NCBI GenBank assembly: GCA_973895155.1
Contig: OZ316892.1
Coordinates: 15,740,861-15,804,860, forward strand
Source: Marsupella aquatica
Lineage: Eukaryota > Plantae > Marchantiophyta
Direction of reading: 5' to 3'
Length of the DNA stretch: 64,000 nucleotides
Part shown: piece after piece, positions 11,891-64,000 of the stretch
Layout of the letters: each line of letters starts with the position of its first letter
How positions within the stretch are numbered: the first letter of the stretch is position 1
Notes under the pieces: generated by a model
Told to the model about the DNA's origin: nothing
Seen by the model: only the letters and a program-made list of their open reading frames with translations
Databases searched by the model: none
Program-made: the position numbers and the translations under genes

Positions 11891-12357
11891 ATGGATCTAT
11901 TTTGTTGTGAGTAGGTGACTCTTTGAAGTGCCATGAGTAGCAAATATCAGCAATAAATGGATGACTTGTTTGTGCAACCGTAGTAACTTGGTGAGTAGGA
12001 TGCCAGACAAAAATGGCATGTGTGAGTATGAGAAGCAAGCTGTCAAACACCGAGCATGGGTGAAGCAATGTGCCGCAGCCCTGTTGGGTGATGTGCAAGA
12101 GGCTATTTCGGATATGTAAGGGACTATGCATAGTATGAGCTGTATGCGTATGTCGTTGTGTGCATCTGTTCATTGTGTAGCTTCTGTAATGGACTACTAC
12201 ATTCATAACCTGTGTCAAATTTCATGTGGGTGTTGCAGTAACAAAAGTATCCTGGCCAACACTGTCGAAGCGGAATCATTGTAGACGGAAGACCTTTTGT
12301 AATCCTTACGGACCTAGGCGACGCAGTGAGAGGTTGACTTCAAAGACCCCTATTTCA

Positions 12358-14366: not shown

Positions 14367-15328
14367 ACCCCCTAAAATGTAAGAAAAAATTTCCTTTTTA
14401 AACCCCTATAAAGTTGGAATATTCCAAAATTTTGGTCAGATGACCCTATTATTCTTATAAGTTTCAAAAATTGGATTTAAAGACCCTATTGTTCCTCTGC
14501 AAAAAAATTTAAGTTTTCACTTTGAACCAATAAAATGATCCTATCCTTCGTGGCACGTGATGTGCCATTTTTGTGAAAATGAAACCCCCGAGAGTGGTAT
14601 GTGTCATCTGAAATCATGTTTAGTGTACCGTGACTTTACCTGGGAATTTGAGGTTCATGGGTGCAGGATGGTTCAGGTCCAGGTTCTAGACCCTCAAGGT
14701 TTGTTACATTGTGCATCAGGTGATCAAATTGCAGTGGCTGCAACAGATCCAAAGATCATCAAACCTGGTACAACTACCATTGAGAGTAAGTATTTGTTGG
14801 TTTGAATCCTCTGTCTGGCCTATTAATGTGGTTGAGTATCTATGTGATGTACGTTCAATTAGTGCAAACTTGATGGTTTGTTGAGAGCTTTAGTGCAAAT
14901 ATGCTTAGTTGTTAATGAAGGAATTTGTGGCTGCTATTGAGGTACAGAGCCAGCACAGGAGGAGGTGCGCATGCCAAATCCAACAGGCAGGAAGAGGAGA
15001 CAAAACTTGGAGGCTACCAAATTTTCAGATTCACAAGAGAAGTAGAGTGATGAGAATGATGTGGTTTTCATAGACTCTCAGCCTCCCCCAGGTATTGGAG
15101 ATGAGTTTTCTCAATCCCCACCACTGGTGAACATGGGAAAGATGAGGACCAGAAACAGTGGGAAGGAGACTTTGCCTTACAAGGCACCAAAGAAGAAGAG
15201 GAATATTAATTCTCCAAAAGGGACAGCAGTGACCACTGTAGCACAGTCTTCTAGGCTAATGGCAACTGATAATTCTGGTGTTTGTGTTGGGATCGACATA
15301 CTTCAAATTGAAGCAAGTACTTTCCATG

Positions 15329-20117: not shown

Positions 20118-20737
20118 TGATACATCGCAAGACTACACCTTACAACCCCAGGGCTAATGGATTGACTGAACGAGCAAATGGACTAATGGGAAAAATCTTA
20201 AACAAAATGGTGGAAGCACATAAGACTGATTGGGATATCAAACTCCACTCAGCATTATGGGCCTATAGAACAGCAGAAAAGATTACAACTTTGAGGACTC
20301 CATTCTATTTAAACTTTTGGTTTGGATAGTATTGTACCCATCGAATTTGAAATCCCTACTGAGAGAATTCTCATTGATAAAAAATGGCAGAATCTGAAAG
20401 TCTTCAGATAAGGTTGGACAAACTAGATGAACTAGAAGAACACCGACTCTTGGCTTTGGATCATACCACTATTCAGCAAAGTAAACGGAAAACAGCATAT
20501 GACAGCAAATTAAAAACCCCTGTTCTTCAACAAGGTGATTTAGCCCTGGTTTATGATTCTCGTTATATGTTCTTCCCGGGGAAACTCCATACTCATTGGA
20601 TTGGACCATATAGAGTTGTAAAAGTATGGCCCAATGGATCATTATCCTTGGAAACTCTAAATGGAGAACCCCTTGATACTCGAATAAATGGTTTCCAAGT
20701 GAAGAAATACTACTTACCACACTCTAATGGCTTGTGA
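20118..20737 (+). pseudogene. Ty3/Gypsy integrase C-terminal fragment
   Basis: HRKTTPYNPRANGLTERANG, WDIKLHSALWAYRT and PGKLHTHWIGPY; homologous to the pol end at 58051-58750. Confidence 0.92.
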
Positions 20738-20766
20738 GGGCACGGCGCCACTTGAGGAGGGGGCTA

Positions 20767-23700
20767 TGTAAGTAGTGAGTAATTCCAAAAGTATAAAGAA
20801 ACTGGGAATTTTTAAAAAAATTTGAGGTATTTAAACTATGTTTACTGCTAACCGTAGAGTAAACTGCATTCCGACTAAACTCTGACAATTTACAAGTCGC
20901 TAGGTAAACTTCTTATGAGTTTACTAGTTTACTAGATTATGGGTTTACGAGTTGAGTCTGATTACGGGTTTACGAGTTGAGTCTGATTACGGGTTTACGG
21001 GTTGACGAGTATCGACCACGAGTGTAATTACTGGATTACGGGCTTACGAGTTGATGACTTACGAGTTAAGGGTTACGAGTGCGCGGTGTGCGGAGGAGCC
21101 TTACGATTGCGACGTCTTATGGCTATCTCAACGGACCTTTCTACGGGTTGGGAGTATGCGACGAGAGCAGCTGAAGCGCAATAGAGAAACGCGCCTTGTT
21201 AAGATCTCTTCTGCCTCTATCTTATTCCACGATCTTAGTAGCAACTCGAGCAGCAAGAACATCCGGAGAACCAGCTATGGCAGACCTCGGAGCTGATGAG
21301 CAGTACCACGTTGAATCCCTGGTGTTTCCCAAGGCAGTGTTGGTCCGAATCCCACAGGCGCCCGATAGCTACGCCAATTTAAGGATGACGCTACAGCAGC
21401 TGGGGTTAGAACTCCTCTTGCATATACCATGGAATGTGGAGTTAGACACATACTTGCAAGATTTTGTCAAAGGCACTACTATTTCCCCTGAATTCCATCA
21501 AACAATCCGAGCTCGACCAAGTCTGTGGACAGTAGAACAGATTTCTTTTGCCTTCGGTTGCTCATCAGAAGGATCGGCATTGTATTCCAAGAAGAAGGAC
21601 TTGTCATCTCCTTACTTCTCTGGAATCAGAAACCTCGCAAATGGATGGAATCTGACTCAGTGCAATTACCCTGATCTGAGAATTCTTTTGGAATTTCTAG
21701 TACCCATTCTCCATCCGAAAAAGCCAACTATCTGCCCTGTGTCCTTGGCTAACACTATTGTAGTTGCTCACAGTGGAGTTATAAAAGTAAATTGGGCCCT
21801 ACTTTTATTTAACGTTATGAAAGATCAAGTGAGGAGCTTGAAAGCAGGGAGGACTACTTACTTACAACATTATCTCTCTCAACTCTATTATACCTATGAC
21901 TGTTTACATTTCGAGGAGAGAACAGAAAGGGGATTACTTCTGATCGAGATGGGCATTGAGGAAGAAATCGATGTGGAAGAACCAGTGGATGCCATTTCCC
22001 TGAAATCCAATAACGAGGATATTGATATGGATATAGAAAATGTATCTGTAGGAGATCTTGAAGCTTTGCCTGAACACAACTTGGAGTTAGTCCAACACCC
22101 TCTGAATAACCAAGTGTACTCACGAGAAGTCAGCATGGGAGAACAACCTGCAGCTGAAGAAGGTGAAGAGGATGAAGACCTCTTTGAGCAACAAGAGCAT
22201 ATTGCGGAACCAACAATTGTTGTCATCCTAAGGACCAACTCGCCCACTCCTTCGAAAGCAGAATCAAATTAGCAACTTATTGATAAGTTGATATCTCTTC
22301 TCAGTTGCAGTGATGATGGACTCTATGATGCTGTTAATGATTTAAGAATGGAAGCTGTCAGCTTGAAGTCACCATTCCCTGACCAGTTAAGCCCTATCAG
22401 GATGATCTCCCCCCCAGGAGAATCAACACCAATGGAATATGTGACTTTCACCCTTGCTACTCAACAGGTCCCTCTTCTAAAATCAAGTGACCTTGTTCCA
22501 GTGACAGAAGGTATCAGCTGTGCAACTATCGTAGATGATCTACTAGAGATACTACAGTGTGAACCTCGACACATAACATCTATGGTCAGAAACTTAGTGT
22601 AGCAATGTCCAACTAGTACACCTTCTCTTAGTCCAAGTTCCCACCCTTACAGTCCTGATTCCAACTACGAACCCACAGAAGGACCGCTCTACAATCAGCC
22701 ACAGTATGAGCATCCTTACGTTCGAGAGGATCTACCTGAAGATTCTGATCCACCCTCTGATTTTAATTCCATTCGATCTTATGATAACTCCTTAACACCG
22801 TCACCAAGGCAGGGATTTGAAGATGTTGATACTGCCTTAAGATCCAATCCAAACTTAGTAGCAGTTATCACCTCGTCTACTCAGACCCCCCGGAATGCTG
22901 TTATCGAGAACAAATACCCGAGACCCCCCGAATTCCAAGTACGCAGGTATGTGGAGACCTGTAAGATTATGCAGGCCAATAGACCACCGGTTGGAGAGTT
23001 CTGGAGATATTATTATATCAAGAAGACGGAGGCCAGTTATATCTTGGACATCAGGTGTTTTGGGACTTCCAGGGTGGAGATGGCACAATTTGATGAGTTC
23101 TGGACTGACTCTCTCTACTTCCGACCTACTCTTGCTATGATGCTACTTCAAGGTGATGTAGAGGTAGAGGATCCAGATTTGGTTTTGGCATACTTCGGAA
23201 ACTTTGCAACCTATGCCCTGGATTTTGTGGTTTCTTTCCTGATGTAGAGTAAGAAGTCTACTGCTCTACAACATGATTACATTCCTCAAGAGCCCAAAGT
23301 TACCCTTGTTTCAACCAGTTCATTGGCTAAGAAACAGAGGATTTGGAATAATGTCACCACTCAGACCTTGACACACTTCAACCGGTACTTCAGAGATGTC
23401 AGATGGAGACTTCGACCTTTCTATTCAAGGATGATGAATAGTGATGAGTTCCTGTATCATTATCCCCAAGTATATGCTGCTACCTGCAACAACTATGATG
23501 TGATCAAAATGTACAGAGAAGCTCTTCGTATAGATTCATGTTATTTGATGAAGAGAATGCCTTTGATGTATCCTGAGAGACAACTGAGATGCCTACCTTA
23601 CTCCAGAGGATCCCCACGCCAAGCTGAGCTGATAGAGGTTACCCAAAATCGAACTATTACCCTTGTGGAGCTACTCGAACCAGAGGACATCCGACAACAA

Positions 23701-24132
23701 GCTTGAAGAAGTCTTAAGTGTTTTTAGTTAGTTTTTAGAGTAGTGCATCTCATCTGATTTTTATAAAAGCGTTCTAGAGCTTTGGAAGCTGTCATACTTC
23801 TTTAGTGTATAGTCTGTACCTAGCAAAACCTCCTGGCAAAATCTCAGAGTTTTCTGACTTATAGTTAGGAAGTTAAAAATAGTTGAATTCATCAAATCTT
23901 TACTTTACCGCGATTACGAGTTACGAGTCAATGACCTTACGAGTTTACGACTTTACGTTTTTATGAGTTTACTAGTTTACGAGTATAAGTCATTTACTAG
24001 TTACTAGTTTACGAGTTCACACTTAGTCATTTTTCCGACTTTTCACTCACAGTTTTGTAGTTTTAAAATTTTGAGGGGTATGAAGAGGCATGTCTCTTCG
24101 ACCCTGTGACCTCTCACTCGGTAGATTTTTAC
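20767..24132 (+). mobile_element. Putative long 3-prime LTR, left part; interrupted by MULE A and resuming at 37315
   Basis: Polypurine tract GAGGAGGGGGCTA lies directly after the integrase and is followed by TGTAAG at 20767. TTACGAG/TTACGGG-rich repeats at 20940-21080 and 23910-24020. Confidence 0.6.
21277..23706 (+). pseudogene. Retrotransposon accessory ORF (~810 codons, several in-frame stops)
   Basis: Track ORFs starting at 21196, 22288, 22951 and 23323 are all in one frame. The N-terminal part (LLHIPWN..DFVK..IRAR..FG..NGW..C..LEF) aligns with the ORF at 54972-57575. Confidence 0.7.
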
Positions 24133-24171
24133 GGGTATAACCACCGTGCTAGCAAATAGTAAATAGATATT

Positions 24172-24325
24172 CTCATACGAGCCAATTTTGCCTCGTACAA
24201 GCAAAATTTTGTTTCGTACAAGTAAACAAGTTCCTCGTATGAGCATATCTATTTACTCGTACGAGTTTCTATTTTCTTGTATGAGTTTCTGTTTTCTTGT
24301 ATGAGTATTTTTTTTCTTGTATGCA
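24172..24325. repeat. Subterminal array of 10-bp CTYGTAYRAG quasi-palindromes, 20-22 bp period
   Basis: Units at 24172, 24192, 24213, 24234, 24256, 24276, 24296 and 24316. Confidence 0.8.
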
Positions 24326-25860
24326 TTTTAGTTTCTTCTCTTCACGGTATGTAGCGTCCATATATGCAATAATTGTGTGGACAATATTATGGTGGGTCCC
24401 ACCATTGTACAACATTAGAGGAAATTTCTCGACGATTTCACACAAGGACTCCAATATATTGCCACGAAATATGAAGTCAAAACAAAGTCATACAATACTA
24501 GCGCCTGGCGCTAGTATAGTATTATACAAAAAAACAACACTTTAAGAACTCACACTTCTGCCCGTTAGAAAAGACAAACTACAATTGTAGCTGTTCAACG
24601 ATCAAGCAACAGTCTACGTTCTCGTTCCCAACTGCCTATCAAGTATGTAACGGACTTCTCCCAACGTTAGAATTGGCTGGCTACATAATGTCGATTCGAG
24701 CACATCCAGTTTGAACACATTCTTGAACACCCAATACACATGTTTGCAAGGCATGTAAGGCTTCCGATAAGTATGTCGACGGTAGAAATCCTCGCAAGAG
24801 CAACATGGGAAACAACATATCTGAACCCAATAAGAGGCGACTGATCTCTCATGTTCATGGGTCCGGATACAAAACTGTTTCCCCGATGCATTTCCACTCG
24901 TGATCACTCTCTCTCCAATGACGCTCATCACTTCTTTTTCAGAGGCTTCAATTCTCTTCAAATGCGTTTGGGTAAGATGCACTCTTTGCAAGCATTTCTT
25001 CCCGTTCCTTGAAGCGCACCTCACAGATGGGTCAGTTAGGTTGATCCTCTCCGGGAAAAGATTGACATCAATCCGTAATGCAGAAGGCAATGGTGCTTCG
25101 ATTTCATCTCCACGGCCTTCGGAGAGAATAAGTCCTTGTTCTTTCAAAAATTGAATCTTTGCTCCAGAAAGATTGGTCCCTCTGGCAATTGGGAGATGTG
25201 AAGGAACATTGGGAATGTTCGGGACTCCTCTCCTTGTTGTGCTTCGGTGACAGTGGTTGTTGGGGCAAAACCATATCTGATCGTTATAAGGTTGCCCCCT
25301 GAACATTCTGCATCCTCTCACGGAAATTGCAACAACACCATCTGGATTCGGAAGACCAACCTTCTTTACTCGATTTTGACATTCATCACGACTACCTCCC
25401 CGTCCAAGGGTTCCGTTACACACTGGACCCGCACCCCGTTTTGAGGTCCGACGCAACTGCCAGGCACCGGGAGGTACTTCACTTTCCATTGGGGAAACTG
25501 AATGACAATATGCAGTCTCGACAGGTCTTGCAGGCGTCACTGGTGGGACAGAGGATCTCGTTGCTCGACGCGTAGGTGTGTCAATGACCACAACTTCCTC
25601 AGAAGCATCGCTTTCTGACAAATTATGGACCGCATCAATTCCACCGGCTGAAGGCGTAGAAGGCATTTTCTCGAAATCAGTGGAATGCAGGTTTCTCCTT
25701 TTCAAACCTTTTGTATTTGGTGAAGTAACAAGGATGGTATCATGCCTGTGCGAGTCTTCTGTCGAGACGTTCCCAGTTGCATGTCCTTTTTGTTTCACCG
25801 ATCGAGTTACAACATCACCATTCCATGGAATGCTTCTTTCCAAATCAAACTCAGCAGCGT

Positions 25861-28238
25861 TGTCACGCGATTGACATGGGTCTTAACACCAAAAACGTCA
25901 CTATGGGTGCCAAAACCATCTCCTTGTACCTGAGGATCACGAAGGGATGTTGTGAATGCCGGTAAACACCAGTTTATGCCCTTAACACCAGACTATCATA
26001 GCAAGACTCTATCACACATCGCCCAAGCTCAATCCCAAGGAACCGAGGTTGGGGATCAGATCTGCGCTCATGATAGTTCTGGTGAGAAGGGGTCTTCATA
26101 TCGGGCCCGTACACACAGGGCCTAGCGCTACGGTGCGCATAGGTCTATACATATGCTTACTGTCATAGGTATGTTTCTATTCCGCCGCCGGAATGTACCC
26201 ATAAACCAGTGACTCCTGACTGATTCCCGGCTTAGGGACTTCTAAGCCATTGCCCCACCACTCTGCCATTCCACTCTCAACAATCAGAGCTATGACAGTC
26301 CTCACCCAGCCCGCTTCAATGCACCCGGTACACCTCTCAGTGGCGCTGCTAGTTCCATCATACACTCAGATTGCCTCACACACACACACATCCATGAGAG
26401 AAATGAGGCCTGAGAGGAAAACTCAATTAGATTCAAAGATGTGCACAATAGTTCACTGAGAACACTTGATCCGAACACTAGGGCCGAAGGCTGTCTCCTC
26501 CAGATTGTGACGTGCTTGCCCTGCAAGCCCCGTGCTTGCCATGCAAGCTCAATCCTGAACTCAACCTCCTTCACTGCACTTCATTCTTGGGGGCACATAC
26601 AGATCTCACACCTCCAATTCAGAACGTCAAGTTACGCATGCATAGTTGACTCGACTTCAAAGCTGGTACCAGGCCTAACGGCGATCTACCCCAGACTGCA
26701 ATGAGGCCCGGCCTCACGCTTGCCCTGCAAGCTCAGCTCTGGCCATAGATCCCTTAGTGCTCTCCACCAGACAAAGGCCGGGACTCCCCATGGGTCACGT
26801 AGCCTTGCCAGACTGAACTGTAAATGCTCCTCCTGCTGCCCCTTAATCAGTACCTCAGCCTCCCTAATGTGCCCACCGCAAATCGAATTGAAATCCTCCC
26901 CACAGTTTACAATCACCAATACATCACCTATCACCAAGGCTCTGTATCGGGGGAAAAGAACCCAGTTGTGCTGCCCGCTAGAAAGAGCCACAATCCAGCT
27001 CGCAAACCTAGCAACCCGTTGCTGTGAAGCTTGGTTGATTACTCCCTGAGTATAGCACAACCAAGCTCTCCCCAACACGCAGCGTCCAAGTCCAGCCTTG
27101 CTTGCACAGAGCTCCTCCCCGCTACTCAGTCTAAGTGAGATCACACAACTGAAGTCCCCCCCTGCCTCTACCGGAGGGATGCTCTATATACTCTCTCATT
27201 GAGCCCAAATGGGTGGATGCTACGCTGTTGGAGCCCCATCCCAGCCCTAATAGAGCCGCCACTATCTCTAACTACTGAACCCTAACTCGCAACTTTATTT
27301 CTATCTCGAATTGGCTATGTACTTCGGATTCGGCCCTCCTCCATAGTTTTCGCGAGCTTGCGCCTCCTCTCCCGATTTCTCTATTTAACCATTTTCTGCG
27401 TGGATAGCAGCGTTGGAAGCGGCTTGAGCTCCTCTTTCCAACGAGGTCAATTATAGCCGATTTGGTCAAATACATAGAGAGTTATGCCCCCATAACCGAG
27501 AGGGGGTACTCACTATTGCGCTAACCCGAGTTACATAGCTAACCCGAGTTCGGCTAACCTAGCTATCCTATCTAACCCGAGTAGAGCTAACCCGTGGTCT
27601 CGGGTTAGGCCGTCACCCGCTATCCGCTATCCGCTATCCTAGCCTAAGCTGAGCCCGAACCCGAGCTTACCTATGCTAACCTGACCCCGAGTAAATCTAA
27701 CCCGGGATCAATCTAATCCGAACCCGGGTTAAGCCTAAGCTGAAGCCGTGCTTACCTAAGCTAAGCTGAAGCCGTGCTTACCTGAGCTAAGCTGAAGCCG
27801 TGCTGACCTAAGCTAAGCTGAAGCCGTGCTGACCTGAGCTAAGCTGAAGCCGTGCTCACATAAGCTAAGCCGTGGTCAAGCTTGGGTTAACCCGAAACTG
27901 AAGCCGAATCCGCTAATTCCGGCCACAAGTTAACCCGTCACACTAATCAGGCCGTATCTTTCTTAATACACCTCCGTTTCCCGAGTGTTTTATATCGATT
28001 TTACTCGCCTTGACCAGATCTTTCCAATGCTCTTTACAGATCCGGATTTGGTGACATATTGAAAGAGATATGGTCGCCGACCACCTGCGACATAGCTTTT
28101 ATTTCCCTACTCTTAACGCCATGATTGCCCTTATTCTTGCCATCTTGCTAATTGTTATGCAATATCAATAGCTACTCCTTGCATACAGCAACCTACTTAA
28201 TCAGATTACAAAATAAGGACCATGTCATTGGCGTCACA
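25861..28238. mobile_element. Solo LTR (2378 bp) inserted in the transposase
   Basis: TG...CA ends, 5-bp TSD AGCGT (25856-25860 and 28239-28243) and ~25-bp imperfect terminal inverted repeat. Removing it restores LLSNAAEFDL as in copy B. Confidence 0.88.
27737..27872 (+). repeat. 26-bp tandem repeat (TRAGCTAAGCTGAAGCCGTGCTKACC, ~5 copies) inside the solo LTR
   Basis: Directly visible; flanked by degenerate taacccgag repeats from 27520. Confidence 0.9.
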
Positions 28239-30983
28239 AGCGTTCGACAGGAGGAGATTGGTGGCTTCCTCAAAGAGACGCGGTGACCCCGCCAGGTCCG
28301 CTGATCTGAAGGCAAGCTCAAAAATAGTTGGGCCAGTTCCTCTGCACTGCTCAATCCCCTTTTGTATGCAGTATAAGCAGCAATTTGAGCAACCGCTCTA
28401 TTTTGGTCCGTTTTACATCCTTCAAATAGACCAACCTTTTTTTTCTGTTGCCATGCTTTCATTCCAGCATGCCTAGATTCCGAACCAGTACAATTAGGAA
28501 TCATCCCAGCCTCTTCGGCACTCTTGCTCTGAAACGTTGCACGCAAGGGTTTAGTACATGTAAGAAATTGCACACAAAAGTGGAAACACAATGGAAATAA
28601 CAGTAGCGCCAGACGCTAATAAACTGATGATGATATTTCCATGTAAAGAGCCGTTTAACACAGAATAAAGGTAGTCCTTACATCACTCATAGTCCAAATG
28701 GATTATTAGCGCTCGGCGCTACTATTGCAGATAAGGAACTCTTCTATCTCACACATGCTTCACTAGCGCCGAGCGCTATTAATGGGAACATGCATCCTAG
28801 AGAAGTGTATAACTCACCAGTCTTATGAAGTTCCCCATTGTCTCCATCGGACAACCCACCAAGATAGCCACCCTTGCAGCATCCGAAGTTTGCCTGAGTG
28901 ACAATTGCCAGACCTCCACTAGTCATCAATTTCCCTAGAGATTCAATATGCTTTCAAGAAAGTTGGCGCATTCCGAAGATGATCCCACATCTCCTTGTGC
29001 TTTCCATCTTTTACACCTTCTCGGGAATGACGATGAAAAGATTGGAAAAAATGAAAGGCATCTGATCTTTCTCGCTCTGGGTCGGGTACACCGTCAAAGA
29101 ACACGTTTCAAACAGCATTCCAACCAGCCTGAGCATTGTCCGCCATGAATCCCCGAATTGTAACATCCTGTAAACCATTTTCATCGGCAACCTCTAACAT
29201 CAAACGCCAGGCTCTCTCCAGAGGTTTTGCATCTTCGGCCTTTAGCTCACAAGTGAATATGGTGCAAAGTGCCCGGTAATGATGATCATATACATGGGCA
29301 CTGAAAGTAAGCCAATCTGCCGTGCTTCGATGCATCACATCAAAACTTACCCATGAACCCTCTAACGACCCACCAGGTTTCATTCTTTGGAGCAGGTCCA
29401 GACCACTACCGTCACCTTTTACAGTCATTTAAAAGATATGAGCACTCTCGTCCCGACAACCTTGACCAGGGAGCAAGAACCTATGAAGAAAAGGCAGTCG
29501 GATACACTTTTGCATCCTCACAAGAAATTCCAGTTCCCCTTTCCCCTTCTGATCTTGACGGACACTCCTTAACACAGATGCAAACTTTTGAGGAGATGCG
29601 ACGACCATCAGGGACTCCCAGATTTCCTTCTCTTCTTCAAGAGAGATTTCTTCAACAGAGGCCTCGCAAAATGTATTCGTCAGTGTCTTAGTTGCAGAGT
29701 TTTTAATCCCTGCTGGGGATGCCATCGGGTTTGCAGTGAATCCCTTCTCCAGATGAGACTTTGCAACCTTTTTTGCCTCCCTCGAAAAGACCCGTCGACT
29801 GGGATGATTGTGAAATCCCATATGAACAGCAAGTCGCGACATGTGGGCCAAAGACTTAATGTCAACTTTTGCAGATGGATACATGTAGAACATTAGAGCA
29901 GGGCAGGCCTCAACGCACATCGGAGGTTCGGAGCAATGGTGACAAACAACTCCACCTTCGGAGATCAATTCCCCAACTCGGAATGGGCCCGAAAGTTTTG
30001 GGGTTCTTGCCAACATCTCATTATTTCGAAACTTGTTGTCTTTCCACCACGGACAAGCATTATTTCGACACTGCAGCGATCCCGTACACTGGACTTTCCC
30101 GAAATCCCACATTTTCTTCGAAAGAACATTTGAAGACGTTTTCACAATCCGAGTCCAATAATAGCAATCCTTACCACGATCCATATCTTTCAAACGTTCA
30201 CCTTTTGCGTTCACACAGTCTACCGGGGGTAACTCAAAAACCACATTCCCATTGTAAGATGTGGGAAGACTAGGCACTACGTGATGAACAAAATCACTCC
30301 CCCTTATAAACCGAGACAATTCACTATGACCTTTGGATTTCAAGATTGTATCCATTGCACTCTGCCGGTACACAGTCAAAGGCACAATCATTTCTCAATC
30401 CGCATTAGACTCCTTTTTAACCTCGGATGGGTAAACTGGAATCTTCTCTCCGAGAGTAGTTGTCGCTTGCTTATCATCTCCAGAACTTTCCGAGAGTTCG
30501 ATGACATTGAGTTCAGCCACTGTGGGAGGACGAGTATAGGAGGCCCCAAAATCTCTCAAAACAAAAACCTCATATTCTTTCTGAGCCTCCAGAGTCCAAT
30601 ATCTTAGACCATGAACAACATCGTAGAAAACTGGAGTCTCCCCCAAACAAACTGACACTAACGAGATCGCTAAAATAGACTCCTTGGTGACATCAAATCT
30701 CACTCCCAAATATTCCTCTGAAACACGCTTTGATTCAGATGATTCGAGGACGGGAATTGTGATTACATCCAGAGTGTCCTTCCTCGTGACAACGATATTT
30801 TGAGCCATGGCTTCAAAAGAGGGATATGCATTTGCCCCACGCGAAATGAAATATGTTTATCATGAGATTCGAGTACAAGAAGTAAACGTTCCATTCTCAT
30901 TATAGAGTCGTTATAGATTTGGACGCACTCCATCAATGACGTTTTGTCGTCTTACCAACGGCAGGATTCGGGTTCATAGTTAC

Positions 30984-31127
30984 TAGCGCCTGGCGCTACC
31001 TCTATGTGTAAAACACCCTTGGGTGAGGACTACGAATGCCAATAATAATAGCGCCTGGCGCTACCTCTGGGTGCAAACATTCTTGGGTGAGGAGTACGAA
31101 GGCAATAAATAATAGCGCCTGGCGCTA
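30984..31127. repeat. Three perfect TAGCGCCTGGCGCTA palindromes in ~64-bp tandem units upstream of transposase A
   Basis: Copies at 30984, 31049 and 31113, with similar spacers (cttgggtgagga.tacgaa). Confidence 0.9.
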
Positions 31128-31589
31128 CCTATTTCAATGGACTTGAAAACATTCAATGGAAGGATAAGTACGATAACGCGATATAGTACGAGTCATTAAG
31201 TTGGCACGCTTTAAGATCTCCACTGGATCTTCGCGAATCCAATCCATCCGGGTCCAAATGTGTCAGAGATCGAGGAAGCGTCCACGAAAGTTATATCAGA
31301 GGGTCCTCTTCAAAGTGGGCAGCCAGGACCAAGTGCGAACTCTCCTTATATCTAGTCGTTCTCCTCCGATGTCCTCATTGTCAAGCCATTCTTTACTGAG
31401 TCGCAGTTGTGGCTCATCTTTCGGGCGTGTGGTTCCCGTTCTCGCATTCGGGCCCAGTTGTTCTTTTGGCTTTCGTGCACGTTCTTGTTCTCCTTCTCAT
31501 CCTCGTTTCTCATTCTCTTCCTAGTTCACGCTGTTGTCCTCCTTCACGTTCTTGTTCACGCTTCTTGTTCTCGTCCTAGTTCACTTTCA

Positions 31590-32012
31590 ATGGCACCTCC
31601 ACGGGGGAAGGCAAAGGAGGAGGCACTTGTCCCGAGTGACACCGACCGGGAGACCCCCGCATCAAATAGCTTACCGCCTCGGGACGAGAGGACGACGGTT
31701 CCAATCTCAAAGAAGGGGAAACTCATCTCAAAGATGAAGAATGCCCCAACTGTGGGACGCAGCGAAGGATCCAGTCGGCCAAATGCGAGCGGCCTGACTT
31801 CTGTTCCCGCTAGGGATATCGCCCATGCTTCAGTTGGCTGTCCAAGAGCCGACACTATCTGCACGGGAGTCTCTGTATCTTCTTCATCCACCGAGAGTGA
31901 TCGTTCTTCGAGCGGGGACTCATCACCGAGCAGGCAAGGATTTGCGTGGTATGGATTGAGCGACTCGAATGACGACTCTGATGCGTACAAGCCAAGTTGG
32001 TGGGAAGACTGA
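31590..32012 (+). CDS. Small Ser-rich ORF (140 aa from ATG) between the two MULE genes; function unknown
   Basis: ATG at 31590 after a pyrimidine-rich leader; MAPPRGKAKEE...YKPSWWED. No recognisable domain. Confidence 0.35.
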   Translation: MAPPRGKAKEEALVPSDTDRETPASNSLPPRDERTTVPISKKGKLISKMKNAPTVGRSEGSSRPNASGLTSVPARDIAHASVGCPRADTICTGVSVSSSSTESDRSSSGDSSPSRQGFAWYGLSDSNDDSDAYKPSWWED

Positions 32013-32337
32013 TTTCCCGGTGTCAGAGCGTCTCGTTCGAGTGCTGGAGAGACTTGGAGGATCCATCGAGGTTGATAGGATCTAATTCCACTCGTTTTTT
32101 TCCGTTACAAAACCCATACCGTTCCTTCCTCGTATGTCGGATTTCTAGTGTATTGTAACATTTTGTATATGAACGGCACAGCCATTCGTTTTTACCCTGG
32201 TGTCAATGCTTTTGAATTCAGAAGACCAAGCTTTAATTTTGGGTTCTACTCCCGTGTTTGCATTGTATTTTTGAATGCGAAACTGATCTATTTCTTTGAA
32301 ATGGCCGTAAACACTCGTTTGCTGTCAATGTTTTTAC

Positions 32338-32773
32338 TAGCGTTCGGCGCTATTATGACAAACAAAGTGTCCATAACACTGTCATGACATGTCTTATCTC
32401 TGAAGTGTTTTTGATAGCGTTGGGCGCTATTAATGAAAGGAATCACAAGTCAAACCCGTTCGGAGTTATTTTTACTTTTATTTCAACAAAGTCTGTTCAA
32501 TTGATGTGCATTTTAATAGCGCCAGGTGCTATTGTAATTCATTGGAATATTCGTTGAATGAATGGGTTCATGTGGTCATGTTTGTTGTCATTGGACTCCG
32601 ATTTCATCATTTATTTGGATACTAGCGCCGAGCGCTACTAAAGTTGGCTTGTCGACTCCTGCACAAAATTGGAAAATTTATAGACACTTGTGTTGATAGT
32701 ACTGTCCGAAGCTACATTAAGATGGTTTTTTAGATACATTTGAAAGTATGTTGTATAATAGCGCCTGGCACTA
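32338..32773. promoter_or_regulatory. Cluster of five degenerate TAGCGCCNGGCGCTA palindromes upstream of the ParB-MTase gene
   Basis: Copies at 32338, 32415, 32517, 32623 and 32759. The regulatory role is inferred. Confidence 0.65.
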
Positions 32774-33159
32774 TCCACAACTACCGACACTGATGTGGTT
32801 CCAACGGTCACTTTCCAACGGTAATATTATAGTAGATTGAGGTTCACGGAACCCTTTTTGCTTTTGTCTGGGATGAAAGTCCAATCGGAGAATGCCATCT
32901 GTACTTGGGACCGTTGTAATCGAATGGCTGGTTCCAATGTATCAGTGTCTTAATACGAGGTGGAGATCGCTTGTTTGGGATAATTTAGTCCGTCTACGCG
33001 CTCAGACCTCGGACTGTACGAGTTTGTCAAGTGCGTATGTGCATCTTTTATTGGTCCCGTACATTTTGAGACGTGATCGTGACAAGAACTGCACGGCGCG
33101 TCCGGCAGTGCCTTTGGTCAGGCGCTCTCCACGACAACTTTTGGCTGGGTGATACGAGA

Positions 33160-36100
33160 ATGGGGGAGGCTGATGGTGGTCATTCTGAGTCCTCTCAATC
33201 TTCGTTTGCTGGTTCAGTATACACCCGTCACGTCACTCGATCGGCTGCATCCCTATCGACTTCCGAAGCTGAATCTGCACAGCCCTTCCCGAGGTCGAGG
33301 AGAGGGAGAATGGACCCTAAGGACGTCTCCATGGGTGAAGTCAGTGACATAGGCTTATCGATAGACGAGGTAATATCAAAGCACGCATTGTCGTTCGGGA
33401 AGGATTTTTGAGGATTCGATAAGGAGCCACCTTGAATTCCTCTTTGTAGATTGCTCCCCATGGAGGTTGTTCGAACCTTACAGAAAGAAAGTGCATCGAT
33501 CGAGAAGTTGAAAGAATCATTCTGTGTCACCGGGTACAACTCGCGCATTGGGATGCCTTTCTACGTTCAGCCTGCGAATGCCGATGGGGTTTCTTATATA
33601 TGCACCAGCGAGATCCGGGACTCTTGGGATCCAATCTGGGTCGCAGAGAACGACAAGTTTGAGGAAGAGTGTGATGCGGACCCAGCATTCCATATTCTAA
33701 AAGATAAAATGTTTTGTGTGTTTGACGGAAATCATCGATTGTACTCGTGGTCAATCGTCACGAGAGAGAATCCAGACAACTTGAAGTATCATCCTCGTGT
33801 GATTTGCGTCATTTTCAATGGTGACAGAGGTTTGCTAGTTGAGCTCAAGGCGGCAATGCACACCGTGAACCAGTAAGTTCTATTCGTTAACTGTTGTTAC
33901 CCCTATCATTCATTTTGGACCAAACATGCTTTGTGAAAGTGTTCGTTCCCCAATTTTTGCTAGCGCCCGGCGCTACTAATTCCTTTTCATTGCATCCAGG
34001 CTTGGACAAGCAGTCGTTGAGCCTTCCTGGATTCTTGACGCGGACAGAATTTCCCGAATTCTATCGCGTGATCTTGATCACTATAAGCCACTCATCGACA
34101 GCACGAACATGGCAAAGTTTGAGGCGATCCGAAAGAAGACGAGAAAGGGGTCTTGGTTTACACATAAAATGCCACAGGATGCTCTCATCTACATTCTGTG
34201 TGTGGACAAAATCAAGTCTTACTCAAATCAATTTAAGTCTGATATGGCTTTAGCCAAAGCTCAAGGGGCTTCTTGGTCAGAAGAGGAGACCACAAAGAGG
34301 CATGAGGCAATGATGAAGGTGGCGACCAAAGATTGGTCGATCAAAGTGACGAAGATCACCCCTTTACTTCATCCGGATTTTGGAGATTATTTGGGAACCT
34401 GTGCTGAGATGTATCCCGTAACTGAGAAGAACAAATGGGAGAAGAAGCCAGACACAGTTGTATGCACAATGGATCGAGCCAGGTTGTTTATTGCTGTTTC
34501 ATACCTGGATCCAAAATTGAGGTGCACCCTTCTAGTAGCCCACTGCACTCCCGAGATTCGGAAACAGTTTTTCCATCCTACAAGTGTCAACGACGAGCCT
34601 GTGAAGCAGTGGTGCCATACATGGCATACTTGGAATTCTGTGGAGGGAATTGCAACTGGAATGCTTCACACTTCTTTCAAACAGATTTCTGACCGGATGC
34701 CGGCTGACCGTCTCACAAAGTCTGGGTGTGAGTCAATGGAGGCCATGCTTAAGATCATTCTCGATGAATTCAGAAACTTTGGGGATCTTGTCAAGGCAAA
34801 ATTCTTCAACAACTTGTGGCCTTCCAAATATGCGGACAAGGAAGATTACACAGAGCGGAACCGGAAGAGAGCCAAACGATATCTATACCGGTTTTACATG
34901 TGGATGGAGCTTAGATCTCCTGACACTCTGTGGGCATACCCGGCTGCATTTTAGAAATGGGTGTCTATCGAAGAGGGAGACGCTCTTGCCAACCTTTATT
35001 CGATGTACCCAGCGGAGGGAAAGTTTCCACCACGTTCATTGTCGGAGTGGGAGAGACTTCACTGTCCGTGGTACCTCAACACAGACAAATGGGATTTACC
35101 GTTCGACGAAGCTGAGAAGGATGCCTTCATGAAGTTGCAGAAGTCCCAGATCCCTGCCAACTATGTGTCTGCAATGAAGCAAGGTCTCCAGTCTGATGTT
35201 GACGAATCTGCATCTGAGTTACAGAAGAATTGTGAGTCTCTTGTCATGCACGTTGACCGAAGCCGTAAGCCAAGAGCAAAGGCGAAGAATGAGTCGGCTG
35301 CACCAAGTGACTCCACAAGGTCCTTCAAGAAAAGTGAGTAGTCTAAGCGCTTTTTGGTTACTTGTTGGCGTTGCTTATGCAGGAGTTTTATTTGGAAATT
35401 CCTTTGATTAATAGCGCCTGGCGCTAGTCTGAAAGGTTGGACTCATTCAAGTTTCTGTGCCTAATAGGAGGTCGAAAGTCCGACACGGAGGTCCCAGCTG
35501 CCGAAGGGAAGAATGATGCAACTCCTCAGGCATCGGAGGCAAACACTGGAGCTCAAGAAACCCCGGATCAAGGGACCCCGGATGGTGCTGGAAAATCCAT
35601 TGTCCCTCTTGACGCAACTAGCACGAAGAAAAAGAAAAAGAGAGGCGCCGGTGAGGACAGAGCAGCATCATCTACTCGAGACGTTATTTCCTGTGGACTC
35701 CAGAGAGATGTCGGGAATTTTAAGCGAAGGTGTTCTAGACACTGTTTTGTGGAGTCCAATTTAAACGAATTTTACGATTCGGTATTTAACAAGGGGATGA
35801 AGCCCATGTGGGTTACTAAAGTTGAGGCCTAGGGAAAGGAATTGGTAAAGTCAGGAGACAGAGAGAAGGGAGTAATGCGTGGCGGAAAAGAGAGGGGCTT
35901 TGGTGTGGATGTTGGTTTCATCTACATTCCCACTGGATTAAAACCAACACTTCTTGATCGGAAGGTTCCCAAGTGGAACCTTCAGGATTACACTATTCCC
36001 AGCTCTTTCTTCCGAGCCATGGAGCCGTTCCTTGCAGACGATGGCCTACTTGCAATTTTACACAGAGGAGACTATGATCAGGTATCTGAAGTGATTGCGG

Positions 36101-36973
36101 CTTGCCAGGATTCTAAGTGTTTCCAGTGTATTTCAACCCACCATGTGGTCATGACTACACCAATGTATAGGCCCCGATCTGATACTCAGGTAACAATTCC
36201 TCTTGCACATACTAGCGCCCGACACTACTATCAGCATTCGCAATATCTACAATTCACTGGGCTGGAAAATCGGCCAGAGTTTGTTGATACTTCCGGTAAG
36301 GTCTTCCTCGATCTTTTACAGAACAAAGAAGTGGTTGCACCAACTCCTCCTAAGAAGATTCCTGGAAGTAAGAAGCAGGACAGGCTCCGTGCTATTCTAA
36401 ATTTTGATTCGGAAGATGAGGATGAGGGTGGAAATGCTTCTCAGCAATCTAAAGATGATGAGGTGTCGAAGAATGTGGTGGACCTTGGATCTGGAGATGA
36501 GGACAGTGAAGAGTCAGAAGAGTAATTTTTTTTAGCTTTCTTTCTCTCATTGTATACTTTTTTCCAAAAAACTCCTCTACTCCCTTTTGTCTAGAAAATT
36601 CGCCCGATTTCCCGACTTCGACTAAAGAACTCCAGTTCAAATTCTCAGGTCAGAGTGGAATCTTCGGAGGCGTTTTCAACTTCGAAGGAACGTCTCTAGG
36701 AACGTTGTACAGACCCCGGAGAAGCCATTTGTTCTCCCCTCTTATGCTGAAAAGGCGGCACGACGGGCAGATTTAGTCAGGACGCTTACTTGGGAGAGTA
36801 AGGGTCTTAGACTTAGGAGAGGCTCAGATAGAAAGTTTGTGCAGAATCACTTCGTAGATGATATTGCAAAATCCAAGTATGTGGACGACGAAGCAGAGTC
36901 CACTGATAGATCAGAAAGTAGCGGTTCTGAATCGGGCTCAGAGTTGAGTGGTGGTTGTGGATCTGGTCTTTAG
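33160..36973 (+). pseudogene. ParB/Srx-like plus amino-MTase-like fusion, copy A (exons ~33160-33872, 34000-35333, 35469-36189, partial ~36253-36522, 36649-36973)
   Basis: VRTLQKESASIEKLKESFCVTGY...FCVFDGNHRLYSW...MHTVNQ; GVDVGFIYIPTG; FFRAMEPFLADDGLLAIL. GT-AG splicing keeps the frame and matches copy C. The SAM-binding segment is deleted. Confidence 0.78.
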
Positions 36974-37314
36974 TTTTCCTTATTTTATTTACCCGTTTAT
37001 GGAGAACGACGACACTCAATAAGAACGCCGTGACGTGTCGGATTGGAGTAGCGCTCGGCGCTATTACTGTAGCCGGTAGTTCAAAGAGGTTTTTATTTGG
37101 TTGTTTTCCTTATAGCGCCCGGCGCTAGTATAAATGTACTCAATGGCCGCTTCACGTCCAATATATGTGATAATATTTTCATACCCTTTGGTGTCTTTTT
37201 TGGGTGCACATTTGCTGGTATGAGTTTTGTTGTTTGCTGTTTACTGTTTGTTGTTTGCTGTTTACTGTTTGTTGTTTGCTGTTTGCTGTCATGGAGAGAT
37301 CCCCCGATTTTTAC

Positions 37315-38154
37315 TATAAGATACCTCCACCACTAGTGTAGTTTATGGTAAAGTCTAGCAATTTTTGCCTTTCCTTGGTGCTCTGCCAGTTGATCATGAA
37401 TGTTAAGAGTTCGAGATCAAGCTTGACACCAGGAGAAGACTTTCCTCCTTCTTGTGGTTTAATCCTTTGAATAAATCATGGGAAGTAAAATTCCAATTGT
37501 GTAAATCTTATGAGATCTAATGACAGATTCCTCTTTGGGTGACTCATTACAATCTCCTGAGTTCTTGGAGTTAACTCACTGAGTTTAAGTCTTATTTGAA
37601 ATTGATGGATTTTCTTTCATGTTGCTTAGTACCATCTAAATGTTGAAGTAGCTACCTTTTAGATCTTATCTGAGTACCACTTAGAAAGAAAGGATAAGAC
37701 ATGTTGACGGCATTTTAAAAGGTACTCTAGTAAGCAATTTAGATCTGAAAAGCAATATGGATTTGTATCCTTAAGTCTTTTCATTTTGACTTATGTCTAA
37801 GGAGTAACCTTGGAAAATTCCAGACTTCCTTAGCATACTTTAAGATATTTTTCCTTGTGTTTTGTTAATCATTCCATTTTCATTAATTTATGGTTACATG
37901 ATGCTGAGTTGTCATTTAAAACCACTCACCGCTGTGGAGCGATCTTCAAAATACCTTATTAAAGTAATCAATTCTGATTACTATGTGTTAAAGAGAGTTC
38001 TTAAACTCTCATTTGTGTTTTTATGTATCAAATCAACCCCATCTTGTTCTTTACGGGAACGAATACCGAGTTTGAAGACCTTTAAGTGTGTTTTTGGTTC
38101 TTCATAGCAAACTACAGACAACACCAAAGAGGATCGATGTATTGAGGGTCACAC
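37315..38154 (+). mobile_element. Putative continuation and end of the LTR begun at 20767
   Basis: Resumes after the MULE TSD with a TATAA element and lacks the MULE palindrome. The CA end near 38154 is approximate. Confidence 0.5.
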
Positions 38155-41100
38155 AACCTATAGTTACCGTTGAATATGACCATTGAAAGGAAAACCTGAG
38201 AATAGATCGAATTCATTTTTACTCACCAAATAGTAGCGCCCGACGCTAGTAATTTCCAAGGCCTAAAGTCTTCAATTTTTAAGTCAGTTGGGTATTCAAA
38301 ATAGAGCCATAAGAGGCATTAATACGCCATTACTTTCCCCAAAACCCTGTTTTCTCATATTTATGATACAAAAGAAAACTAGCGCCCGACGCTAGCAAAA
38401 AAAAAGCCTTTTCAGCCTTTTGAAGGCTCCCACTTCAAAGTTTACCATTGTATACATTGATAGTATGAATGAAATCAATATTAGCGCTTGGCGCTAATCA
38501 TCCAGTGTCTCCTTTAGGAATTTGTTTTATGTCATTTGCTTTTATTAGCGCCTGGCAGTACACACAAATTGCCGTTAGATGGACCCTAAACTTTTGGATT
38601 GTTATTAATAGCGCCAGGCGCTACACATAAATTGACTCTGCATGGGCCTCTACTTTTGGATTGTTTTTAATAGCGCCTAGCGCTATTCATCATCTGATGT
38701 TTCTAGAACAAAAGGGTTCTTCCTAAATGACATTTATTGTAAATGACGTTGATCATAAATGACGTTGATATAACGAAAAAATACATTTATTGTGTCAGAG
38801 GATTGTCTTATTATAACGGCTTTATGGAACTATTAGTCAGGATCGATAACAGTCCTTGCCCGCGGAATTTTGATTCATAATTTTCTTGCGCTCATTTGCT
38901 TCCAAGGCTTTTGTGATGTCTCAGTCAATCGTAGTTACCCGTATGTCCACCGGTGACATTGTTTCCATTCCAATGTCTATGGCCGAAAGGTACAGGCAAA
39001 TAAGTGAGGTTTATCTTTGTGGAAGGTTTGATTTGCGCATGAATGACATAGAGGCAATCGTTCAAGAGGGAACGGAAGCCAATGACTTCAAATCTGTTGC
39101 ACTTTTTGATGTCGATGATGGGGTGAGATTCTGGCACCTTAATGCTGGGTTGCGCTACTCCATTGTCATTCAAGAACCAAATCAAGGAGATCGACAATCC
39201 CCTCAGAGGGATCCGGTGGATGTAGTTACTCTTTCCGATAGTGATGATGAGGAGCCACCAAGGATCCCCCTTGTGGAGCCTTCGGCACCTGACGTGGTCT
39301 TGGTCAAAGAGGAGATGCCATCGTCGCAATCCCATATTGTATACCGGAGAAGTGCAATGGACGTGCTGCTCAAGTCAACTGGGTCCAGCAAACTTTTGAG
39401 GTTCATTTTGGCTGGAAACTTTCCGGCATGAACAAGTACCTTGTTTGCCTCCGAAGTACAATGGAAACGTAGTGTTTGAGTTGCCTCCATCGTCGGGAAT
39501 TCTTTCAAAAGGATCCCGTCTACGGGACATGGACTAAACCAAGGATTGCTATATCTGGACTAGAATATTTCCTACCACTACAAACGTGCAGCCCAAGAAA
39601 TACTGGGAATTTGGTAAAGTTACTTGTACTGGATTTATTGAGTGCAGGAATAAAACTTGTGACTACTTCCGCCGAAAGAAGAGGAGGAATGCAAAGGCAT
39701 GGGCTGGTACCCCAAAACTTGGAGGCTCTCACCGTGTTGGATCGTTCATTGAGCAGGGTGGAGTTGTTTGTCATTATTGCCAGGAGCTCCCTTTTTGTGT
39801 AGAGGCATGCTCTACGAGACTATTTTATATGTATCCTCAAGTTCTGCTTGACTCAGATACCTGTAGTCACATGTCTCGCCTTGCGATTCATATGGGGGTA
39901 CAACCATCCTTGTCGTAAGGTATTTTCTTGGAGTGCGGAAAAGGTAGTTGAAGATGTCATAAAAAAGAAATTGGAAGGCAATCTGACTTGGACGCCTGCC
40001 GGGATTAAAAATGTAGCGACAGGATCTTTTGTACAGTCTTTGTGTGAGAGCCTGGGTGAGATTGAAGATATCGAAGAGACAGAGATTTTCCAGTCTCTAA
40101 TGGTAGTTTCTACTCCACAGGAGTTTGCATCTCTTTTCAGGAGTGTTAGGCAGGACCAGAAAGGCCGTGGAGAGTTGGATTTTCTTGTTCGATATCAAAA
40201 GAATATCAACATGCCTTTTCTACAGAGGTACATGATCCTTCCAGGTCAAGGATCTCAAGAAGACAGACCTCATATATTTAAGATGACTTCCAAAGGCCAT
40301 GGGTTTGGGGTGGATCTTTTGCGGCAAATGCAACCTGGAGGGATGCTTGAAGGTGCCTCGGTAAGCTTTGATGTCCTGAAACGAATGACCAAGGATTGGG
40401 TGACTTTCAGCGCACGCGTTTACGATCACAATTACCGCGCATTGTGTACAATATTTACTTGCAAGCTAAAAACTGAGGACACGACGTCGTTCGAGAAGGC
40501 TTGGAGATTAATGATTGAGGTTTCCAAAGAGAATGGGTTAGATAATCCAACCATTCGTGGCTTCATGGCAGACAATGCCCAAGCCGAATGGTTAGCAGTC
40601 CGAAATGTTTTTTTGGGAGGGCAGCCAAACCCTGAACGGGAGAGGACGGACGCTTTTCATTTTTACCAAGCTTTTCATCGCCATTCTGTTGAAGGAGTGT
40701 TGGAAGAGAAGCAGGTGGAACACTGAATGCTATGGGATAAATTACGGAACGCACCAACATTTGTAGAGGCTTACCGACTTTCAAGAGAGATTGACCTATG
40801 GTGGCAGTCGGGTAACTGCTTACCTGGAAAGCTCCGAATGCTTCAGAGTTGGTATCGTGGTGGGTCGTGCGTTGGAGGCAGTGGGGAAATTTTATTTGCT
40901 TGGTGAGTAATAGCGGCACTAGTAATATGCAAGTCAGATTCCTTTGTAGAAGTACATTTTTCACATGACATTCCTCAACATTCCATCCAAAGAATCCAAA
41001 TAATGTAATTGATTCTAAAATATTGACTTGTTTATTTCCATAAACATGTGATTACACAATAATATTGATGGTTTTGTCAAAATGTTCTGCCTAGCGCCTG

Positions 41101-43354: not shown

Positions 43355-43445
43355 GCGAGTTCTCAGGATAATATCTTTCTGAAATTCATTTTTTACCATA
43401 TCACTTTTAGCTAGCAATCTCGCTAACATGGGAATGTTGTGGCAG

Positions 43446-63933: not shown

Positions 63934-64000
63934 ACGTCGGGACGATTGCGAGTCCTCCGAGCCCGACGAGTCGGAGCTTGTTGTGGTTGCACTTTCTCGT

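Follow-up and report, generated by a model that had tools for sequence, protein, structure and literature searches.

Can a transposon in a plant nucleus recognise its own DNA with a protein of bacterial type? The question is raised by 64,000 nucleotides from the liverwort Marsupella aquatica (assembly GCA_973895155.1, contig OZ316892.1, positions 15,740,861 to 15,804,860), hereafter called the window. A Mutator-like element in this window, copy A, carries beside its transposase a spliced cargo gene whose predicted product unites a ParB-like and a methyltransferase-like domain, and 17 copies of a 15-base-pair (bp) palindrome are scattered over the same element. I tentatively favour, with a probability of roughly 0.4, the reading that the cargo protein is a ParB-fold clamp giving the element a self-recognition that counters host silencing.

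Copy A was inserted inside a multi-copy long terminal repeat (LTR) element, and its limits are set by a 9-bp target-site duplication (TSD) and by the empty site: in contigs of three public runs (X1, X2 and X3) position 24123 is joined to 37306, the overlap being 9 letters long in X1 and X3 and 6 in X2. The TSD length lies within the 8 to 11 bp given for Mutator-like elements (MULEs) in PMC6446971. The ends are short, degenerate terminal inverted repeats (TIRs) that start with GGG and match each other at 15 of 26 terminal bases. Further ends of the same family occur in the window at 527 (end E) and 43354 (end C), to which the left end of copy A is identical at 26 and 22 of 28 positions, respectively. 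The duplicates, the empty-site joints and the 15 matching bases bear out the 9-bp TSD and the short degenerate TIRs described in the initial annotation, which was made from the letters alone; the TSD length and the GGG ends rule out that element A is a Sola or a CACTA transposon. Its main parts are:

24133 to 37305: element A, bounded by the flanking duplication and the empty-site joints.
24124 to 24132, no strand: left TSD, GATTTTTAC, with the empty-site joint in three runs.
37306 to 37314, no strand: right TSD, GATTTTTAC, with the empty-site joint in three runs.
24133 to 24160, plus strand: left (transposase-side) degenerate TIR, followed to about 24330 by subterminal repeats of the CTCRTAYGAG type.
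37278 to 37305, minus strand: right degenerate TIR, with 21-bp subterminal repeats before it.
24614 to 30808, minus strand: decayed Mutator-like DDE transposase with one intron at about 28530 to 28817, its motifs read by eye and by comparison with kin.
25861 to 28238, no strand: nested solo LTR (TG...CA) of 2.4 kb with the 5-bp TSD AGCGT, which interrupts the transposase.
33160 to 36525, plus strand: cargo gene, with exons at 33160 to 33872, 34000 to 35333 and 35468 to 36189 and a remnant at 36258 to 36525.

The palindrome, TAGCGCC-N-GGCGCTA, is found 32 times in the window when up to two mismatches are allowed: 17 times in copy A (7 perfect), 7 times in a sister copy B and 8 times in a sister copy C. 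A hundred dinucleotide shuffles of the element yielded 0.01 sites on average and never more than 1, which rules out a chance origin and upholds the 17 copies counted earlier. At the same threshold the motif is absent from the solo LTR, from the flanking LTR element and from positions 528 to 15300 and 47701 to 64000. A tandem-repeat artefact was rejected as its source, as all 15 sites tested between 28240 and 37305 have unlike flanks. The sites of copy A, none of which has a strand, are located as follows:

24499 to 24513: one palindrome downstream of the transposase.
28604 to 28778: three palindromes in the transposase intron (28604, 28707, 28764).
30984 to 32773: eight palindromes between the two genes (30984, 31049, 31113; 32338, 32415, 32517, 32623, 32759).
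33961 to 36227: one palindrome in each cargo intron (33961, 35412, 36213).
37049 to 37127: two palindromes near the right end (37049, 37113).

All 17 fall outside the coding blocks, which I drew by hand and which take up 7,499 of 10,796 bp (P 1.7e-9), and every intron is palindrome-bearing, in A (4/4) as in B (3/3) and C (1/1). In the intergenic DNA, what blastn aligns between the copies is limited to the palindrome plus a few bases beside it. As synonymous sites between A and both B and C are saturated or nearly so, and as intron identity between A and B or C (0.50, 0.58 and 0.55) is at or near that of shuffled introns (0.43-0.46, 0.48-0.52 and 0.50-0.55), the palindrome must, on these comparisons, have been maintained by selection or repeatedly regenerated while neutral DNA turned over.

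The way in which the sites vary favours a double-stranded DNA site that a dimer recognises. On either side of the 1-base gap, the innermost C and G are both kept in 23 of the 32 sites, and in the other nine the only differences are C>T or G>A; of all 28 changes in the palindrome, each affects a single side, none is compensatory, and 22 are C>T or G>A. A dimer-read site is preferred because compensatory changes are lacking and because the symmetric inner bases could not pair in RNA. For the same reasons I consider it very improbable that the palindrome is an RNA hairpin or splicing signal, or is read by a host transcription factor, with the cargo unrelated to it. Single sites do fold into hairpins of 5 to 9 bp at -3.6 to -8.4 kcal/mol (8 of the 32 were folded), and the GGCGCC core of several moss-type dyads in the distant relatives described below has a likeness to the E2F site, but palindromes also lie outside transcribed introns, and the site sequence changes between subfamilies, copy D having a different dyad.

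The same parts had been said to recur in three further copies, B, C and D. As a family trait this holds, but each of them is partial:

15320 to 20127, minus strand: sister copy B, cargo only, 7 palindromes; the left limit is approximate.
38100 to 43354, plus strand: sister copy C, transposase only, 8 palindromes, with a TIR ending at 43354.
43355 to 47080, plus strand: distant copy D, whose cargo lacks the ParB exon and is 36% identical to that of A in the central region.

B and C probably represent two halves of a single element into which an LTR was inserted; a search for a clean TSD of this joint element found none, the best candidate having 2 mismatches. The palindrome that D had been expected to share did not turn up there (0 copies of the A type at up to two mismatches). 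Three sites like TAGCGA-NN-TCGCTA were found by eye in the introns of D, with one more in coding DNA of A, and a de novo dyad test made no call on this motif. Positions 1 to 527 of the window are the transposase-side end of a further family member, E, with a variant dyad, TAGCAC-TTG-GTGCTA, at 190.

The cargo gene of copy A is divergent from (head-to-head with) the transposase. Its exons 1 to 3 splice in frame at GT-AG sites into 923 codons, including four stops (33409, 33433, 34952 and 35830); the introns were inferred from GT-AG sites and from homology to B, D and a relative, P0056. Added to these 923 codons, about 178 from the last exon of B give a whole protein of about 1,100 amino acids. 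A deletion at 36258 removes the exon for binding S-adenosylmethionine (SAM) that other copies possess, and high-depth contigs of these other copies continue on both sides of the deletion; compared with the run contigs, both this deletion and the stop at 35830 are private to copy A. The first transposase exon has 6 stops, and the solo LTR is missing from other copies, in which run contigs join 25855 to 28239. With stops in both genes, the lost SAM exon and an LTR within its transposase, copy A is a dead copy of a multi-copy transposon family. In X1, collapsed near-identical contigs reach read depths of 250-380 beside divergent contigs at 12-24, depths that are not to be taken as copy numbers.

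Decay notwithstanding, the cargo is kept under purifying selection as a family trait, as the initial annotation had it: in all parts compared between A and B or C, the enzyme-like domain included, the proportion of synonymous differences (pS) is 0.68-0.86 and that of non-synonymous differences (pN) 0.17-0.31, and the transposase stands head-to-head with the cargo in distant relatives as well. The gene is divided thus:

33436 to 33872, plus strand: ParB/Srx-fold domain with R13, D-G-N-H-R and N145 (predicted model, mean local distance difference score, pLDDT, 88.5).
33998 to 35333, plus strand: central region of about 445 amino acids without a family match, the presumed candidate site of sequence-specific DNA binding.
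35740 to 36423, plus strand: domain resembling a beta-class amino-methyltransferase, which reads Y-I-P-T where [DNSH]PP[YFW] would be expected, its SAM-binding part lost only in A.
36626 to 36970, plus strand: a third reading frame, or one more exon, that is conserved and recurs behind the cargo of B (16150-16478, minus strand) and of D (46749-47036, plus strand).

The third frame, whose product has an acidic, serine-rich tail, is under purifying selection (pS 0.86, pN 0.25) and matches no family. Pfam, PADLOC and the rest of the window gave no match to an open reading frame (ORF) of 140 Ser/Lys-rich amino acids between the two genes, at 31590-32012 on the plus strand; it could be an exon lying upstream or constitute another gene.

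Both folds that had been named for the cargo, ParB/Srx and an amino-methyltransferase, were recovered by structure models with Foldseek and VIA. For the first domain, VIA aligned 93 residues of the model with Caulobacter ParB 7bm8 (Z 8.5, root-mean-square deviation 2.5), and the top 30 rows were all of ParB/Noc/KorB/PadC/Srx/SerK type, KorB among them with Z 7.5; Atlas placed it at 0.95 to a cluster in which 11% of members carry ParB_N. The DGNHR motif is located at 33724. Its GNHR part, the phosphate-binding GxxR of Box II, is found in 20 of 21 relatives and the N at the Box III position in all 21, so that R13, GNHR and N145, which I equate with Boxes I to III by position (boxes after PMC12704722), are each retained in 20 or 21 of 21. 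A sequence search of the PDB with profiles of the ParB, methyltransferase and transposase regions gave no meaningful match. In scans of viral and prokaryotic contigs with the ParB profile, 0 of 86 and 0 of 71 pattern matches, respectively, were confirmed as relatives, and for this reason I name no donor lineage.

The second fold is that of an enzyme which in this subfamily is likely to be catalytically dead. The domain matches PF01555 (E 5e-5 for copy B; in four of seven relatives 2.7e-5 to 0.028; none reaching the gathering cut-off) as well as phage methyltransferase families, and Foldseek aligned the model of a relative, P0004, whose SAM half has a pLDDT below 50, with CcrM (E 1.2e-4) and with a phage adenine methyltransferase (E 5e-5). 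Since VIA put Trm14 first (Z 9.5), ahead of beta-class enzymes (Z 6.3-6.8), the beta-class assignment rests on Foldseek and on the order of motifs, with the catalytic strand first and the SAM-binding motif last. The latter is kept in copy B as DWTVGSG. The catalytic motif, defined as [DNSH]PP[YFW] in PMC4738411, is absent from all 33 aligned sequences of the window's clade, which read x-L-P-T/N with Y (10), A (9), F (7), S (3) or another residue (4) in first position and never an aromatic residue in the last; the high-depth majority form in the runs is likewise YIPT. These residues argue against an active methyltransferase with an unusual active site that would lay down, as was proposed for the algal proteins, a protective mark of N4-methylcytosine (4mC) or N6-methyladenine (6mA) around the palindromes. 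The purifying selection on the domain (pS 0.77, pN 0.19), the kept SAM-binding motif, CcrM as the best fold match and the N4-cytosine methyltransferase in use in a liverwort (10.1101/2021.02.12.428880) speak in favour of such self-marking, as do ten distant loci read by eye, which mostly begin the motif with D, E or N (DIPE, DCPV, NVPG, DMPD); with 0 of 33 canonical motifs, I nevertheless regard it as improbable. One of the ten distant loci, L043 (3500-4275), reads D-I-P-W, the sole near-canonical motif seen, and by this motif is the best candidate for an active enzyme, so that activity may persist in the distant clade.

The transposase itself was called Mutator-like because of the 9-bp duplication and of DDE and finger motifs seen by eye, not from a profile match: the window pieces and four database relatives gave no MULE or SWIM match in Pfam and no NCBIfam or PDB profile match. 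The motifs comprise an N-terminal Cys/His region, which I take to be GCM-like, the residues D (SFDV), D (MADNA), DxxH (DAFH) and E (SESxH), and a SWIM-like CxC..CxH finger at the C-terminal end; all are kept in copy C and in the four relatives. D, D, DxxH and E form a signature of Mutator-type transposases, and the MULE transposase claimed at the outset is, by TSD and motifs, a probable one.

Relatives of the cargo extend beyond the window. Of ten that were looked up, four belong to the liverwort Calypogeia fissa, and 2 of 19 matches are from the liverwort Riccia sorocarpa and the lycophyte Selaginella; the ParB profile further retrieved 80 metagenome loci, reducible to 54 non-redundant groups with flanking genes of plant type, 10 of which have a methyltransferase-like region downstream of ParB. 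The same transposase stands upstream on the opposite strand in L015, L033, L037 and L074/075, and its N-terminus in L007 (E 5e-4); this head-to-head arrangement, seen in 5 of the 16 groups whose upstream sequence reaches 4 kb or more, shows that the two genes are linked in distant relatives. In L080 (1857-2519), the gene upstream of ParB-methyltransferase encodes a CACTA transposase and has the same orientation; either the cargo was perhaps transferred from one transposon superfamily to another, or the CACTA gene is a nested neighbour.

This linkage is one of the points in favour of a role of the sites in transposition, with the cargo clamp or the N-terminal zinc domain of the transposase condensing the 11-kb element, pairing its ends or marking donors. 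Only 15 of 26 bases agree between the two TIRs, the organisation of DNA is the native task of ParB, and, according to 10.64898/2026.08.24.746577, sequence-specific binding and activation can come from a Mutator transposase itself. However, the AtMu1 transposase peaks at TIRs according to the same source, whereas the palindromes are internal and unlike TIR or subterminal repeats; the ends of A and C differ at 6 of 28 bases, yet share the palindrome; and ParB genes with inverted repeats are also reported beside a CACTA-type transposase (10.1101/2025.02.11.637652). I therefore hold such a role to be unlikely.

The palindrome of the window occurs in none of the 80 metagenome loci, but some have dyads of their own. 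Among the 33 groups longer than 3 kb (21 shorter groups were left out), a dispersed dyad was found near ParB in 10, against 1 of 21 distal segments (Fisher p 0.036), while none of 99 shuffles and none of 6 non-element tiles of the window had one. L007 has 14 perfect sites of the AGGTGCC/GGCACCT type, and TACTTT-N8-AAAGTA occurs in L033, L043 and L055. Near ParB, two leave-one-out motifs turn up again in other loci (12 near and 0 far; 11 near and 0 far), and like sites go with sister ParB domains (L007 and L050, 97/93), a likeness for which common descent would suffice. Together these patterns suggest that subfamilies carry their own sites. The moss-type dyads of L013, L033, L037, L052 and L065 have apparently a decayed YGGCGCCR-like core with different arms.

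On this evidence the cargo protein is probably the reader of the palindrome, and it seems somewhat more plausible than otherwise that it acts as a dimeric sliding clamp using cytidine triphosphate (CTP) or adenosine triphosphate (ATP); that the element profits by anti-silencing, in the manner of VANC on VANDAL or of VirB against H-NS, I would give an even chance. The analogy is drawn because the placement of the sites mirrors the targets of VANC21 and because the VirB clamp opposes silencing. The cargo protein would bind the element's own palindrome as ParB binds parS, close around the DNA as a nucleotide-gated clamp, and spread along the element, changing its chromatin and holding off host silencing; the dead enzyme domain, with its SAM-binding motif kept, could serve as a reader of DNA or of a base, or as a docking surface for host factors. 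A fuller version is conceivable, and in all its parts rather unlikely: a domesticated, nucleotide-gated clamp of bacterial type would load at element-specific parS-like palindromes in every intron, slide on chromatin and shield the whole element via its dead methyltransferase domain, site and protein diverging together. As to the self-recognition proposed in the initial annotation, the palindromes do behave as selected, element-specific, double-stranded sites, but its self-marking by methylation is not supported in this subfamily, the catalytic motif having been seen in 0 of 33 sequences.

Several results weigh against a silencing-countering clamp. The Foldseek E-values for the ParB model are weak (best 0.036), and the ParB fold also occurs in proteins that are not clamps, nucleotide use not being predictable from sequence (PMC12704722). 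For the central region I found no longer homologs, no Pfam family, no helix-turn-helix (HTH) or other DNA-binding domain, an Atlas value below 0.9 and nothing in PADLOC; a PDB profile match to a ribosomal protein helix was taken as compositional. Among the relatives, 23 of the 33 loci are without a dyad, a stricter exact-match test gave 4 of 33 against 1 of 22, the near segments were longer than the far ones (204 kb against 77 kb), three of the five leave-one-out motifs showed nothing (2 near and 3 far; 0/0; 0/0), and a pooled test of the core was not significant (p 0.09). Agreement between motifs and protein tree cannot tell cargo from transposase as the reader, because kin share DNA by descent. 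Finally, the observed/expected ratio of CpG in the coding parts (0.57-0.71) is no better than in LTR pieces (0.60-1.02), and this ratio, the changes within the sites and the differences between copy A and the majority form in the runs (25 of 31 being A-for-G or T-for-C) suggest that the copies bear the marks of long methylation.

Such footprints, which suggest that the copies were not protected for long, would suit a cargo protein that reads the palindrome as a transcriptional autoregulator, by KorB-like repression or germline timing, and thereby limits or times transposition. Eight of the 17 sites lie between the two divergent genes, and one of the fold matches is KorB. Against this, palindromes occupy every intron and the 3' ends, a placement that agrees better with coating of the whole element than with promoter control, and I consider autoregulation quite unlikely. 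The self-recognising clamp remains my preferred reading.

Elsewhere in the window, a decayed CACTA element at 8100-15300 (Transposase_21 E 1.5e-59, DUF4216 E 4.6e-9) has no dispersed dyad and served as a control; upstream of its transposase, at 5289-7777 on the plus strand, ORFs encoding PHD fingers of NSD type together with two BRCT domains are possibly a chromatin-reading transposon cargo. The solo LTR within copy A, the sequence of which is very abundant in the runs, contains at 27520-27900 a 26-bp tandem array and AACCCG-rich repeats that resemble 54191-54265. Positions 20127-24132, 37306-38000 and 47700-64000 are nested pieces of LTR retrotransposons, with an open pol frame of 1,085 amino acids at 58051-61308 on the minus strand.

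Only for VANC has it been shown by experiment that a transposon recognises and de-silences its own DNA, as stated in 10.1101/2025.02.11.637652; the ParB accessory genes of algae have so far been a hypothesis with little sequence evidence. The present family offers a defined 15-bp site, evidence of selection, subfamilies with different sites and near-identical multi-copy members, in hosts related to transformable bryophytes. It makes accessible to direct test the questions of whether a ParB clamp is able to load and slide on nucleosomal DNA and of how transposons escape silencing by 5-methylcytosine (5mC) outside the flowering plants, and it warns that the label methyltransferase may mislead on function, as the plant enzyme looks dead. 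If the fuller version given above is true, a working ParB clamp exists in a plant nucleus, together with a natural set of orthogonal, site-addressed anti-silencers, and if anti-silencing holds, pairs of site and protein could keep transgenes active.

The pairing of ParB and methyltransferase on a transposon is already published for algae and is not new; the novelty implied at the outset was set too high, as both the domain pairing and the self-binding hypothesis are in print for algal transposons. The present analysis adds the land-plant Mutator-like lineage, the selection on the sites, the subfamily-specific sites and the likely dead enzyme. In the literature searched I found no description of this lineage; Repbase and Dfam, outside the scope of the search, may hold it. 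A close counterpart by description is the accessory gene of the large DNA transposon Sola1-1_Ec32 in Ectocarpus (PMC12477816), which lies on the strand opposite to the transposase and encodes a ParB-like and N4C/N6A methyltransferase protein for which binding and modification of the element's own sequence were hypothesised. Both proteins combine the same two domains and are of similar length (1,104 against about 1,100 amino acids), but Sola1-1_Ec32 belongs to a brown alga and has a 4-bp TSD and a TIR of 282 bp, against the 9-bp TSD of a Mutator-like element in a land plant; the text found on Sola1 makes no mention of palindromes, and its enzyme is predicted to methylate, whereas here the catalytic motif is lost. 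In red algae, the Plavaka elements (EnSpm/CACTA) carry the accessory genes PAG3 and PAG2, with a ParB-like gene that has nearby inverted repeats as its proposed binding sites, and homologs are noted on Mutator elements of Chondrus (10.1101/2025.02.11.637652). There ParB is fused to a 2-oxoglutarate (2OG) oxygenase and the methylase is separate, with SET, and the repeats form tandem arrays beside the gene, in contrast to the ParB and methyltransferase-like fusion and to the single sites spread over introns and intergenic DNA of copy A. The likeness of both algal proteins to the cargo is one of description, not of alignment.

The methyltransferase-like domain agrees in fold and motif order with beta-class amino-methyltransferases of phages and prokaryotes (CcrM, MboII) and with MpDN4MT1 of Marchantia. 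Identity with MpDN4MT1 was rejected, as this active enzyme has TSPPY (10.1101/2021.02.12.428880) and the cargo family x-L-P-T/N. With ParB/parS, KorB and the ParB-like VirB of Shigella, a CTP clamp that acts at virS and opposes silencing by H-NS (PMC10676424), the cargo shares the ParB-CTPase fold, GxxR and candidate residues of Boxes I and III. Its DGNHR is nearer to the DGQHR subtype (E 0.16 and 0.022) than to canonical ParB, from which it also differs by a helical insert of about 45 amino acids, by the lack of a detected HTH and of ParA, by its eukaryotic host and by its spliced gene. A further parallel is VANDAL21, like copy A a Mutator-like element with an accessory gene and with short, element-specific, non-coding motifs that differ between families. 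VANC21 binds such motifs of its own element, which lie in introns, between genes and in terminal DNA, and its anti-silencing was shown experimentally (PMC5735166). Identity of the cargo with VANC was rejected, as the VANC domains (DUF1985 and DUF287) have no Pfam match in the window at E up to 1 and different folds were recovered; where VANC, with these domains, binds non-palindromic 8-9-mers in tandem repeats, copy A has a 15-bp palindrome and other folds.

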